Sequence record: PZ452594.1
Source of the DNA: a phage
Reading direction: 5' to 3' (one strand)
DNA: 64,000 bases
Position numbers and translations under genes: made by a program. The notes beneath the pieces are model-generated. The model saw only the letters and a program-made list of their open reading frames with translations, was not told where the DNA came from and did no database searches. This document shows, piece by piece, positions 774-6,312 of the stretch; position 1 is the stretch's first letter; every line of letters begins with the position of its first letter.

Positions 774-1628
774 TCACAATGAAGAAAATTCTTTAACTAA
801 AGCCTGTAATGAAGCCTCTATTGGATATCCATTCTTAACTAACATTTTCCTAAACATTACATGTTTAGGACGATTATATGATATCCACAATTCATACAAT
901 TTATCTTTATTATCCCAATGATAGCCTTTTCGTCGAGATGCTATATGAGCTTTTCTAATCTCCGGATTTTTCCAACTAGCAGCTACTGAATTTGATATAG
1001 CTATTTTATATTCAGGTTTTGATAAAGCAGCACGAACAGCCTTTTGGTGTTTAATTTTATTTTCTTCGTTATTAAACCATTCCCTTGAAGCCATTGAAAT
1101 TTTTTGTTTTGTTTTAAAATTATTTAATCTTTCTTTATTATCTTTCCTATTTTTTGCTACTGAAAAATATTTTAATGCCCTTTCTCTAGCAGCATTTCTA
1201 TTTTGCGGATTTGAATAATACTGTTGAAGCCTTTTTGATATTGTGTCACTTACATCTTGTTTTATAAAACTATATTCAGCAGCTATTAAATCAACTTCGG
1301 CTAAAGATAAATTTTTATATGTTTTTCCTGACATCATTCTATTTAAAGCATTTAACATTTTTCCATTTTTACCTTTTGCTAATAAGAAGTGTGCTTTAAA
1401 ATGATTAAAATGACTTAAATTAACTAAATTCCATGTAGATTTTAAATATTCAGGAAATATTGATTTAGGAAGCACGTGGTGTGCTTCCGTTTTACCTGGA
1501 GTTTTAACAGTTGAATTCACAGAAATAAAATTAATGTAAGACTTGGCGTCTTCTTCACTCAACGCTAATTTTTCAACTAATTCCTTTATTAAAAATTCAT
1601 CATTAATGTCAAGTTTAAAATTCTTCAC
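774..1628 (-). CDS. Free-standing HNH homing endonuclease (Mob-like)
   Basis: 284-aa ORF with H-N-H motif EAHHVLPKS...NLVNLSHFNHFKAH; apparent GTG start with AAGGA SD; sits between genes 47 and 46. Confidence 0.65.
   Translation of the reverse strand: MKNFKLDINDEFLIKELVEKLALSEEDAKSYINFISVNSTVKTPGKTEAHHVLPKSIFPEYLKSTWNLVNLSHFNHFKAHFLLAKGKNGKMLNALNRMMSGKTYKNLSLAEVDLIAAEYSFIKQDVSDTISKRLQQYYSNPQNRNAARERALKYFSVAKNRKDNKERLNNFKTKQKISMASREWFNNEENKIKHQKAVRAALSKPEYKIAISNSVAASWKNPEIRKAHIASRRKGYHWDNKDKLYELWISYNRPKHVMFRKMLVKNGYPIEASLQALVKEFSSL
1593..1628 (-). repeat. Direct repeat copy 1 (GTGAAG-N12-GACATTAATGATGAATT), covers HNH start codons
   Basis: Read from sequence; matches copy at 1796-1831 in 23 of 36 positions incl. 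17-nt identical core. Confidence 0.7.
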
Positions 1629-1831
1629 AAAAGATTCCTTTTAATGTATCTTTTAGACCATTCTATCATATCATCATAATCTAAAAAGTATTCATCAAAT
1701 TCAGCCATGCAAACAACACCTTGTGCTGTTTTTGATGTAATATAAATTATTCCAACATATCTAGAATCTTCTTCGGTATAATCAATGTTTGCTATGAATT
1801 CATCATTAATGTCAAATGTCGAAAACTTCAC
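1625..1831 (-). CDS. Hypothetical small protein; N-terminus duplicates HNH N-terminus (KFSTFDINDEF); start uncertain
   Basis: ORF track 1625-1888; in-frame GTG at 1829-1831 mirrors HNH start; stop overlaps HNH GTG (GTGA). Confidence 0.3.
   Translation of the reverse strand: MKFSTFDINDEFIANIDYTEEDSRYVGIIYITSKTAQGVVCMAEFDEYFLDYDDMIEWSKRYIKRNLL
1796..1831 (-). repeat. Direct repeat copy 2
   Basis: See copy 1. Confidence 0.7.
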
Positions 1832-2075
1832 AGTATGCATCCTTAATACAAGATACAGCCATATCTCGTAATGATTTAGGTGTGTCATTATCTAAAATGT
1901 TGAAGTTAAAAGATACAGCCCAGTCAGTGCAGACCGTGACCTTTTTAATACAATTATCTTCAACCTCTAACGGTTCAAACCAATATTCAATAATTTCTTT
2001 ATGCCCAATATCATCTTTTACTTCGCATTCAAAATGCTGACTCATCATAACATTTTTAAATTCATCAAAAGTCAT
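1812..2075 (-). CDS. Hypothetical protein (87 aa)
   Basis: ORF start overlaps gp47 stop in ATGA arrangement (translational coupling). Confidence 0.45.
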   Translation of the reverse strand: MTFDEFKNVMMSQHFECEVKDDIGHKEIIEYWFEPLEVEDNCIKKVTVCTDWAVSFNFNILDNDTPKSLRDMAVSCIKDAYCEVFDI

Positions 2076-4713: not shown

Positions 4714-4920
4714 TCATAACTGCCACCATTTTTTGACTTGATAAGAATCAACCCACACTTTCATATTAGGGTCTGCTCTTACAATAGGAGGATTAACTTC
4801 TTTAATTGAACTATCATGGTATTCTTTTTCAGAAATTTTCACACAAAGATGACCATTCAAAGATTCAGTAAATCCTGCATTAATTTTAAGACGCTTGAAT
4901 TTTACGTGTGTAAGCATCAA
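4714..4920 (-). CDS. Hypothetical protein (68 aa)
   Basis: ORF in early small-gene cluster between 55 and a-gt. Confidence 0.4.
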   Translation of the reverse strand: MMLTHVKFKRLKINAGFTESLNGHLCVKISEKEYHDSSIKEVNPPIVRADPNMKVWVDSYQVKKWWQL

Positions 4921-5203
4921 TCATATCCTCAATTTGCGATCTAGTAGTCTTCCAAAGAATACTAATGAGTTCATCGTTATATGGCTGTTTTAGAATATCC
5001 CGACTTTTCTTGATAGCATATTCGTATTGAGCAAAATTATTATTTTCAGCTGCAATCTGAGCGTGCTTATAAAGACGATTCAGTTCGCGTTTGTTTTTAG
5101 ACAATAACTTATTTGCTTTTCTTTCTGCTTCAAGACGGTTCTTTTCTTCAATAGAAGAAATAAGCTTTTCCACTTCATCATTAATTTCGGGTTTATCAGT
5201 CAT
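4886..5203 (-). CDS. Hypothetical protein (105 aa, charged/coiled-coil)
   Basis: ORF, T4-like compact gene packing. Confidence 0.5.
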   Translation of the reverse strand: MTDKPEINDEVEKLISSIEEKNRLEAERKANKLLSKNKRELNRLYKHAQIAAENNNFAQYEYAIKKSRDILKQPYNDELISILWKTTRSQIEDMIDAYTRKIQAS

Positions 5204-5204
5204 A

Positions 5205-5423
5205 TTATTTCTCTAATATAAAATAAAAATCATCATCTGTTAAATGATACCGATAGTTTAATTCTACACCATTAGATTTAAAAGCGGTATCATACGGATT
5301 TTCTGGATCAATATCAATGTCAAGAGCTAAAACTTCCCTGAGATACATTTTAAGTAAATAGGGAATAGCTTCAACTTCAGGTATTTCTTCCAAGAATCCG
5401 GAGAGGTTAATCGTTAGCCTCAT
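5205..5423 (-). CDS. Hypothetical protein (72 aa)
   Basis: ORF immediately downstream of gene 55. Confidence 0.45.
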
Positions 5424-5964
5424 ATAAAAAATCCAAACTAGGAGAATCGTCTACAACACTTTTCTTTTCAGCCCCCGGTGTTCTATAGGTTGATTCTTCG
5501 TAATGCGTCATTTTATCATAGATGTCTTGAATAAAAGTTTCATCTACTAACGCAACCATATCGTCGTCACGACTGTCATAGACATTGTGAACGAAGTAAC
5601 TGTATTTCTTTGCAACTTCCTTACGTTCTTTTTTAATACGTTGGACGAATGCATTAAAACAAGCTTGAGTTATATATGCATGCGGGTTTTTATATTTCGT
5701 TTCATCAAAATTATGAAGCCCCTTAATAGAAGCTTCTATACCATCTGCAATCATTTCTTGTTTCCAAGATTGGGTGTATCCTGAAAAGTTGAAACGTTTA
5801 GATAAGCCTTCTGCAATAAGCATAATGGCTAATCCGATAGTATCATTCTGACGAACTACTTTATTTGGGTCTTTATTATTTGCTAATTCTGTTTTCCAAT
5901 CAATAATAGCTTGTAAAAGCTCTTTATTGTTTACGTAATTATATTTAGGCTTAGTTTCTGACAT
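5407..5964 (-). CDS. 55: Late-transcription sigma factor gp55
   Basis: 185 aa from ATG at 5962-5964 (track M1 is GTG); [17 protein letters not shown]; T4 synteny. Confidence 0.85.
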
Positions 5965-6042
5965 TTTCACCTCTTAGCTCAATTCATAGATCTATTATAT
6001 CATAATATTTGAAGATCTATCTTAAAGCATAGAGGATATCAG

Positions 6043-6312
6043 TTATCTAAGTAAACAGTATGCTTGGAACACTTTCTCCATCATCTTTTTAAATTCATGA
6101 ATATCTATATAATGACTAGTTAAATCAGCATGATATAAAAAGTCTAAAAACTTTTCATGTGTGCTAACATATTCACTTTCATTTAATTCAGAAACATGAC
6201 TTTCCCAATATCCAACACCAGTCTTATTTGGGAAAAATGAAATTTTCATGTATTGGTCAACATAGAAAATGCCATAATTTTCAATAGTAATAGAAATATT
6301 AATAAATTTCAT
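6043..6312 (-). CDS. Hypothetical protein (89 aa)
   Basis: ORF. Confidence 0.45.
   Translation of the reverse strand: MKFINISITIENYGIFYVDQYMKISFFPNKTGVGYWESHVSELNESEYVSTHEKFLDFLYHADLTSHYIDIHEFKKMMEKVFQAYCLLR

Follow-up and report, generated by a model that had tools for sequence, protein, structure and literature searches.

The free-standing homing endonucleases of T-even phages form a classic system, and to our knowledge most Mob enzymes, MobC and MobD included, are without a known target. The T4 gene for MobE, located between nrdA and nrdB, is promoterless and coupled to its upstream gene (PMC2988022), and MobE nicks the 5′ region of the downstream nrdB in mobE-less T2, at a site where mobE-carrying genomes are polymorphic (PMC2790892). 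Other Mob-type genes, such as T4 MobA in gene 60/39 and Aeh1 MobE in nrdA, are lodged within host coding sequence (PMC2988022). Here we describe a member of this family in a 64,000-nucleotide (nt) stretch of phage DNA from sequence record PZ452594.1, referred to below as the window. A 284-amino-acid (aa) open reading frame (ORF) with an H-N-H motif lies on its minus strand at 1628–774, immediately upstream of the recombination-nuclease gene 46. We propose, with a probability of roughly 0.75, that this ORF is a Mob-type endonuclease gene nested in the start of gene 46, that it homes into one allele of gene 46 (allele B, defined below), and that two start captures built its N-terminus.

T4 MobE and the window ORF are alike in being promoterless, in having a start that overlaps the upstream stop, in adjoining a conserved DNA-metabolism gene and in being variably present among T-even phages, and in both cases the carriers are polymorphic in the 5′ region of the downstream gene. 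They differ in that their sequence similarity is weak, with a MobE-annotated ORF matching in tblastn at 36% identity over residues 31–120 only (E = 2e-7). MobE also has its own intergenic ATG, whereas the window ORF is fused in frame to codons of genes 46 and 46.1, and the window insert, unlike mobE, supplies a replacement start for the host gene. Additionally, the nick was mapped experimentally for MobE, while that of the window enzyme is predicted. MobC and MobD are the closest named relatives by sequence (36% and 30%) and have the same N-terminal H-H...N...H region, with a variable region C-terminal to it, but their C-terminal regions are different from that of the window protein and their loci are nrdG/nrdD and nrdC.11. 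MobC overlaps its own upstream ORF (PMC2988022). T4 MobA and Aeh1 MobE split their host protein in two, whereas in the window six N-terminal codons of the host gene have been displaced and rebuilt.

The endonuclease ORF and the inserted segment

The ORF is intact in the window and matched phrog_655 'homing endonuclease' over its full length (E = 7.8e-45). In tblastn it matched MobC-annotated ORFs at 35.6–36.1% identity (E about 1e-21 to 2e-22) and MobD at 30% (E = 2e-11), which upholds the Mob/HNH affiliation proposed in an initial annotation of the window. The profile search which that annotation had proposed gave this PHROG homing endonuclease match, but no HNH match in Pfam or NCBIfam. One member of the first of our two paralog alignments (A2) matches NUMOD/I-HmuI-like Pfam models, whereas the window protein does not. 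The predicted catalytic region spans residues 48–84 (E-A-H-H-V-L-P...W-N-L-V-N-L-S-H-F-N-H-F-K-A-H; 1487–1377, minus strand), and H50, H51, N67, H76 and H80 are invariant in both paralog alignments (A2, A6), in agreement with the H-N-H motif noted initially. In an AlphaFold model this region forms a strand at 47–51, a strand at 68–72 and a helix at 73–84 with a predicted local distance difference test (pLDDT) score of about 85–92. The full-length model is confident over residues 11–100 only, its C-terminal two-thirds being unreliable, and the N-terminal domain modelled alone came out worse (pLDDT 55). A Foldseek comparison of the model with the PDB gave no informative fold match (best E = 0.37).

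These matches identify the ORF as a free-standing homing endonuclease gene of the Mob (HNH) type. Its subfamily is small and always immediately upstream of gene 46, which it adjoins in 86 of the 86 records carrying it. RefSeq already labels the ORF 'homing endonuclease' in T6, PP01, RB68 and others, and the window protein is 100% identical to a protein cluster of 85 sequences (P0001). In a 2010 review, T2 is credited with one 'other HNH' endonuclease gene (PMC2993671), which is probably the same ORF, and we found no description of the locus and no experimental data on it in the searchable literature. The locus is an already annotated, uncharacterised member of the Mob family, and it leaves the general picture of homing endonucleases unchanged.

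A palindrome, GGAAGCAC-ACCAC-GTGCTTCC, was also observed at 1468–1488, exactly over the E-A-H-H-V-L-P codons of the ORF. It is terminator-like on the antisense (plus) strand only, the coding strand having no T-run after it. Internal terminators have been reported near the 5′ ends of mobE and segF (PMC2988022).

To place the boundaries of the insertion we used a pairwise alignment with T4, followed by an alignment with 13 other genomes (14 in all), much as the initial annotation had proposed. This defined an 870-base-pair (bp) segment, 1610–741 on the minus strand, that is present in the window and absent from T4, formally inserted between codons 6 and 7 of gene 46. It comprises endonuclease codons 7–284, the stop codon, a 15-nt spacer and a new six-codon start for gene 46. 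The window is nearly identical to T4 through genes 46.2 and 46.1 and a further 18 nt, GTGAAGAATTTTAAACTT, and T4 identity restarts at AATAGAGTAAAA, which is gene 46 codon 7. Those 18 nt (1628–1611, minus strand; M-K-N-F-K-L) are now endonuclease codons 1–6, and in T4 they are the annotated start of gene 46, with a GTG that overlaps the 46.1 stop as GTGA. They match the gene 46 start at 18/18 nt in T4 and JK23, and at 17/18 in RB6, PYps32T, pSs-1 and ECp13. The endonuclease ORF is thus without a start of its own and uses the original gene 46 GTG, still in a GTGA overlap with the 46.1 stop, a translationally coupled slot in which expression is presumably low.

At the other end of the insert, the spacer ACAATTGGATACAAA (773–759, minus strand) separates the endonuclease stop (776–774) from the new gene 46 ATG and holds a weak GGA Shine-Dalgarno-like element 7–9 nt upstream of that ATG. 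The replacement start, ATGAAATCATTTAAACTT (758–741, minus strand; M-K-S-F-K-L), came with the insert and is identical in all six of the aligned cassette carriers. It differs from the Tequatrovirus start at 5 positions. Over its first 15 nt it is the same as the gene 46 start (ATGAAATCATTTAAATTA) of Shf125875, a Mosigvirus free of the cassette, which suggests a donor with a gene 46 of Mosigvirus type as the source of the insert's right end. The guanine-plus-cytosine (GC) content is 25–29% across the insert and 32–39% in genes 46 and 47; this low GC content and the Mosigvirus-like new start fit an imported segment. As a separate observation, the spacer at 759–773 (..GGATACAAAATG) resembles the final bases of Mosigvirus 46.1 (..GAATACATATG, at about 1488–1501 of the Mosigvirus sequence compared), which hints faintly that a remnant of a Mosigvirus-type 46.1 may once have adjoined the cassette at its right end.

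The initial annotation had pointed to a 9-mer, TTTAAACTT, and to K-N/S-F-K-L at the starts of both the HNH ORF and gene 46. Both are present. The annotation also inferred an insertion that had copied the 5′ end of its neighbour. For gene 46 we found the reverse arrangement: the first codons of the ORF are the original gene 46 start (18 nt as in T4) and the insert supplies the new one. The key duplication is that of the gene 46 start, which the annotation had listed second; its left copy was there before, and its right copy arrived as part of the insert. The product of gene 46 stays one protein with a single start residue changed (MKSFKL as opposed to MKNFKL). We infer that gene 46 initiation is independent of translation of the endonuclease ORF, because the frameshifted copies in RB68 and T2 end far upstream and keep the same spacer and ATG.

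No Rfam match to a group I or II intron was found in 500–2300 at E ≤ 1. An intron- or intein-encoded endonuclease was considered and rejected, as there is no Rfam intron, the ORF is closed by a stop codon and gene 46 has an ATG of its own 15 nt beyond it. Sigma-70-like promoters were at background (13 found vs. 9.8 expected), and a pattern scan found neither a strict MotA-box middle promoter nor a TATAAATA late promoter below coordinate 3300. A MotA-box candidate picked out by eye, CTGCTTTA...TATAAA (about 1030–1000), was set aside as a gene 46 promoter inside the cassette, since it fails the strict spacing and the −10 pattern. As far as such scans go, they are consistent with the promoterless Mob cassettes of PMC2988022.

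The mosaic N-terminus and related endonucleases

A 36-bp imperfect direct repeat had been reported in the initial annotation. We recovered it as a 45-nt pair at 1585–1629 and 1788–1832 (78% identity, spacing 203) with an exact 17-mer core, GACATTAATGATGAATT, at 1594–1610 and 1797–1813. Allowing up to 2 mismatches, the 17-mer has 3 matches in the window against 0.07 expected, and 0 of 100 dinucleotide-preserving shuffles reached 3; the direct repeat is not due to chance. The source copy encodes 46.1 codons 7–12 (D-I-N-D-E-F; 1813–1797, minus strand), and the second copy, taken from 46.1, encodes endonuclease codons 7–12 (1610–1594, minus strand). The motif is native to 46.1, because the 46.1 copy also occurs in cassette-free T4, JK23 and RB6, and the divergent 46.1 of Gaprivervirus VR20 still reads N-L-D-D-E-F at codons 7–12. 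Homology to the nearest endonuclease paralogs starts only at residues 16–24, and codons 7–12 therefore fall outside the endonuclease lineage's own sequence. The possibility that D-I-N-D-E-F is a native Mob-family motif was rejected on the exact DNA identity of the two copies, the paralog alignments beginning at 16–24 and the retention of the motif in divergent 46.1.

The third match to the 17-mer is a near-copy with 2 mismatches, GAAATTAATGATGAAGT, at 5172–5188 on the minus strand. It forms codons 6–11 of an ORF at 4886–5203 (MTDKPEINDEVEKL...) between a-gt and gene 55 that is a-gt.4-like judging by its position. The DNA after this near-copy is dissimilar, and it is probably a product of chance or of AT-rich codon bias at N-termini.

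Endonucleases of the same subfamily are found in phages F2 (where it is called 'MobD-like'), Salmonella SEA1 and Melville. They are 43–44% identical to the window protein over nearly the full length, and they too lie directly upstream of gene 46, have a stop-overlapping start and are accompanied by a divergent patch at gene 46 codons 12–21. Through 46.2 and 22 nt into 46.1 (ATGACGAAGACTGATTATGAAA), F2 has exactly the sequence of cassette-free Shf125875. A 44%-identical endonuclease follows in place of the remainder of 46.1; in contrast to the window, the fusion is after 46.1 codon 7 and 46.1 itself is lost. The SEA1 endonuclease takes only the start slot behind gene 47, its ATG overlapping the gene 47 stop as ATGA, at a position occupied by the GTGA of gene 46 in cassette-free Gelderlandvirus STML-198, where genes 47 and 46 are adjacent. 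In both F2 and SEA1 the 3′ end of the endonuclease gene overlaps the gene 46 start by 14 nt, as opposed to the 15-nt spacer in the window. The endonucleases of the three genus-level backgrounds are only 44–55% identical. Because F2 fuses to the 46.1 start and SEA1 uses the start slot behind gene 47, this endonuclease lineage, as read from the genomes compared, has captured a resident stop-overlapping start more than once.

For the mosaic N-terminus in the window, we infer that capture in two steps would be the simplest history. In the first step the ORF would have been fused to 46.1 codons 1–12, probably replacing 46.1 as in F2. In the second it would have moved behind an intact 46.1, joining gene 46 codons 1–6 to the 17-mer. 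The start regions of 46.1 and gene 46 share 12/18 nt, and the join itself has about 2 nt of microhomology. The initial annotation had the ORF copying the start of its neighbour, perhaps in two steps; it is built from neighbouring starts and two steps are the simplest route, but the copied part does not include the 5′ end of gene 46.

It is also possible that the 17-nt identity arose in place, by short-patch ectopic gene conversion between similar neighbouring starts, with no earlier fusion to 46.1. Both starts share GTGAAG and are 203 nt apart in direct orientation, and vaguely similar N-termini occur in other Mobs ('MDINFKS' in a Pu-Krd-SF3 paralog and 'DFVNDKL' in MobC). This explanation also gains from our failure to find the intermediate of the two-step history, a 46.1(1–12)::endonuclease fusion replacing 46.1, in phage records, IMG/VR or metagenome contigs. 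The exact junction pattern and a cassette 32-mer had 0 matches in IMG/VR, a degenerate pattern had 0 matches in metagenome contigs, and the full-coverage matches listed for a chimeric BLAST query against phage records all had the ordinary two-piece arrangement. Contigs encoding an identical protein had the same context as the window, and SYGD1, a candidate intermediate whose alignment began later, was rejected as it has normal architecture and a drifted repeat. Against conversion, the two copies drift independently (16/17 identical in T2 and 14/17 in SYGD1) with no sign of ongoing homogenisation, and F2 shows that the lineage does fuse to 46.1 start codons. We regard conversion in place as somewhat doubtful and retain the two start captures.

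Gene 46 alleles and the predicted target

Among Tequatroviruses, codons 7–22 of gene 46 occur as two alleles that differ at 10–11/44 nt, while the flanks of this patch differ by no more than 4.5% (0–7/203 nt in 46.1 and 0–6/133 nt in gene 46 past codon 22, about nt 67–200). Allele A (N-R-V-K-Y-K-N-I-M-S-V-G-Q-N-G-V; 740–693, minus strand, in the window) is linked to the cassette and is found in every carrier as well as in T4 and JK23, with T4 and the carriers differing at 2/44 nt. Allele B (N-R-V-R-Y-Q-N-I-M-S-V-G-G-N-P) is found in RB6, PYps32T, pSs-1 and ECp13, and it is closer to the Mosigvirus sequence (6/44 nt different) than allele A is (15–16/44). Probe counts gave about 360–370 cassette-free genomes with allele B, about 70–85 cassette-free genomes with allele A, 71 carriers with A and 0 carriers with B.

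A similar pattern was seen in the other two backgrounds. When F2 is compared with Shf125875 and SEA1 with STML-198, the sequences on either side are nearly the same and only the start of gene 46 diverges, as far as codon 21–22; in F2 the patch starts only at codon 12. Cassette-free genomes in all three backgrounds read Y-Q-N-I-M-S-V-G-G-x-P and carriers read Y-(K/S)-N-I-M-S-V-G-Q-x-x, with a GGN to CAA change at codon 19 common to all three carriers. Because carriers and cassette-free genomes differ sharply there in three backgrounds, as in the MobE/nrdB pattern, we predict that the enzyme nicks or cuts gene 46 of cassette-free allele-B genomes at codons 12–21, and we propose that allele A is a co-converted, cleavage-resistant version of the target. 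In such a scheme the enzyme would act around these codons, and repair by recombination from a carrier would copy the endonuclease gene, the new start and the resistant patch together, a mechanism that experiments have demonstrated for MobE and nrdB. The initial annotation had named the 47/46 junction as a possible target; gene 46 itself, at about codons 12–21 and divergent in three backgrounds, is the likelier site.

The GenBank records of the allele-B phages RB6, PYps32T and ECp13 start gene 46 at an internal ATG (codon 15) rather than at the GTG overlapping 46.1, and their gp46 therefore looks 14 residues shorter than that of T4.

Intron-encoded homing endonucleases recognise the insertion point itself, and the same could be imagined here. 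Cassette-free allele-A genomes such as T4 would then be the substrates, insertion would destroy the site, and allele B would be a non-substrate. The insert does interrupt GTGAAGAATTTTAAACTT followed by AATAGAGTA, which is intact in T4, and the difference of only 2/44 nt between carriers and T4 is as for entry into a T4-like allele. However, the right junction keeps TTTAAACTTAATAGAGTA..., which would leave a change in just the upstream half of such a site, and F2 and SEA1 show the same type of patch against their local relatives, that of F2 beginning at codon 12, some way from the junction. MobE, a characterised relative, also nicks at a distance from its own insertion site (PMC2790892). Recognition of the insertion point is in our opinion unlikely, and we continue with allele-B gene 46 as the predicted target.

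With this target, it is probable that T4 and the other cassette-free allele-A genomes either once carried the cassette or are products of co-conversion. A deletion with its ends in the two TTTAAACTT 9-mers on either side of the insert would give back exactly the T4 sequence. Alternatively, the patch may have been co-converted into T4 without the endonuclease gene, or allele A may be the background of the first insertion. A broader history can be put forward tentatively, and at less than even odds. The lineage may have moved among at least three T4-like genera by serial start capture, fusing each time to any stop-overlapping start codon available and bringing an earlier host's first gene 46 codons along with the resistant patch, and the N-terminus of T4 gp46 (allele A, Q19) would be the leftover of a cassette lost by the TTTAAACTT deletion. 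The element would then target the gene for a nuclease (gp46/47) that may itself take part in recombination and homing by processing breaks.

Several points speak against our proposal of a nested Mob-type gene that homes into allele-B gene 46 and was shaped by two start captures. Linkage of the cassette to allele A over 0–48 nt is expected from physical proximity alone, roughly 70–85 cassette-free genomes also have allele A, and this allele could simply have been the background that first received the cassette. Nor are the genomes counted independent of one another phylogenetically. The 71 copies share one locus, are at least 97% identical and include several that are frameshifted, and the fusion intermediate was missing from the three collections searched above. 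At the protein level, no Pfam HNH family reached E ≤ 1 for the window protein or the four paralogs scanned, NCBIfam likewise gave none, and the protein has no sequence relative in the PDB. The activity and mobility of the ORF are predicted only.

Distribution, neighbouring genes and implications

The first 3.2 kilobases (kb) of the window match T-even phages end to end (RB51/RB68 98.9%, PP01 98.8%, T6 98.3%, T2 97.6%), and 72 of the 663 phage records matching this 3.2-kb query cover at least 80% of it. A probe for the T4 junction was split into two places in 71 records and uninterrupted in about 445 (of about 515 Tequatrovirus records), and cassette carriers make up about one in seven T4-like coliphages. 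Presence is patchy although the flanks are 95–99% identical among Tequatrovirus records. Carrier copies are all at least about 97% identical, and in tblastn the window protein has no relatives between 60% and 90% identity. The ORF is intact in most carriers, since all listed tblastn carriers except RB51, T2 and Ac3 match as a single piece. RB68 and RB51 have a 1-nt deletion in an A-run and T2 has a 2-nt deletion at another site, and by their positions these frameshifts are independent inactivations.

A record of this kind might also be left by a decaying or domesticated resident gene that is immobile and perhaps never was mobile here, with the gene 46 patch being ordinary mosaicism between phage lineages. 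The single locus, the copies at least 97% identical, the two or more independent frameshift lineages, the lack of any promoter-like site above background and the lack of experimental data in the searchable literature would all suit such a gene. It is harder to reconcile with patchy presence among phages whose flanks are 98–99% identical, with a GC content that is low relative to the flanks, with an ORF that is intact in most carriers, and with a niche and patch that recur in three genus-level backgrounds whose endonucleases are only 44–55% identical. We consider a resident gene quite improbable, more so than recognition of the insertion point, and favour a mobile one.

The explanation that fared worst was that of the initial annotation, in which the HNH ORF and both small ORFs formed a single cassette of about 1.3 kb that entered between formerly adjacent genes 47 and 46, with the enzyme targeting the empty 47/46 junction; Gelderlandvirus does have 47 and 46 adjacent (STML-198) and a related endonuclease directly between them (SEA1), but in the window's genus the cassette-free order is 47-46.2-46.1-46 (T4, JK23, RB6, pSs-1, ECp13), both small ORFs belong to conserved families with Pfam models, and the gap relative to T4 is 870 bp and begins after 46.1, which refutes this idea for Tequatroviruses and leaves it next to no probability overall. 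What stands of it is a real free-standing endonuclease-gene insertion, absent from T4 and most close relatives; its size is 870 bp and not about 1.3 kb, and the small ORFs are the resident genes 46.2 and 46.1. The coordinates given for gp47, gp46, the small ORFs, the 284-aa ORF and the ATGA overlap were all correct, while the statement that T4 genes 47 and 46 are adjacent was mistaken, as 46.2 and 46.1 lie between them.

In the window the order is 47, 46.2, 46.1, the 284-aa ORF and 46, all on the minus strand, compared to 47-46.2-46.1-46 with a GTGA overlap of the 46.1 stop and the 46 start in the T4 record. Gene 47 (3091–2072, minus strand) is a 339-aa ORF for an SbcD/Mre11-like recombination nuclease subunit; it is resident and outside the element, and is annotated as 47 in RB51, RB68, T6 and T2 at about 98–99% DNA identity. 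Gene 46.2 (2075–1812, minus strand; 87 aa), whose start overlaps the gene 47 stop as ATGA, is a resident gene that is annotated in T4 and nearly identical to the T4 copy in pairwise alignment, and it matches Pfam PF25721 T4_Y03C (E = 2.6e-43). The T6 RefSeq record NC_054907 (1126–1389) labels 46.2 'XhlA hemolysin', whereas Pfam gives the same family as T4_Y03C, function unknown, and the T6 label looks like an annotation carried over from elsewhere. Gene 46.1 (1831–1625, minus strand; 68 aa, GTG start at 1831) is likewise resident, is annotated in T4, RB68 and T6, and matches Pfam PF17589 DUF5487 (E = 4.4e-49), the match beginning at residue 20 of a longer ATG-initiated ORF. Only the 5′ part of gene 46 is in the window (758–1, minus strand, ATG at 758), where it runs off the edge; it encodes an SbcC/Rad50-like subunit, and the full 560-aa gp46 product matches SMC_N/AAA_23.

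Other endonuclease ORFs were observed nearby in some phages. In Citrobacter phage PhiZZ23 (NC_054901, 110–733) a different, second HNH endonuclease ORF replaces 47.1 upstream of gene 47 and overlaps the gene 47 start by 23 nt, which makes the 47/46 operon host to more than one element of the kind. In RB68 (5627–6199) and F2 (4976–5692) an opposite-strand 'homing endonuclease' ORF is located directly downstream of gene 46, between 46 and 45.2, in a part of the genome that the window, starting within gene 46, does not cover, and thus gene 46 is flanked on both sides by endonuclease genes in some phages.

The element is of an ordinary kind, but its scars are unusually legible: a captured start, a copied 46.1 segment, a replacement start and a linked, putatively resistant patch. 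The locus is an unusually clear insertion record of how a promoterless selfish gene can gain expression without harming an important host gene, by taking that gene's translationally coupled start and supplying a substitute. Comparative data alone also give a testable target of about 30 bp, gene 46 codons 12–21 of allele-B phages, with a natural and putatively resistant allele as the control. If T4 gene 46 does retain the footprint of a lost cassette, part of the reference T4 gene 46 sequence would be a product of the element, and this would bear on the origin of localised mosaic patches in phage core genes.

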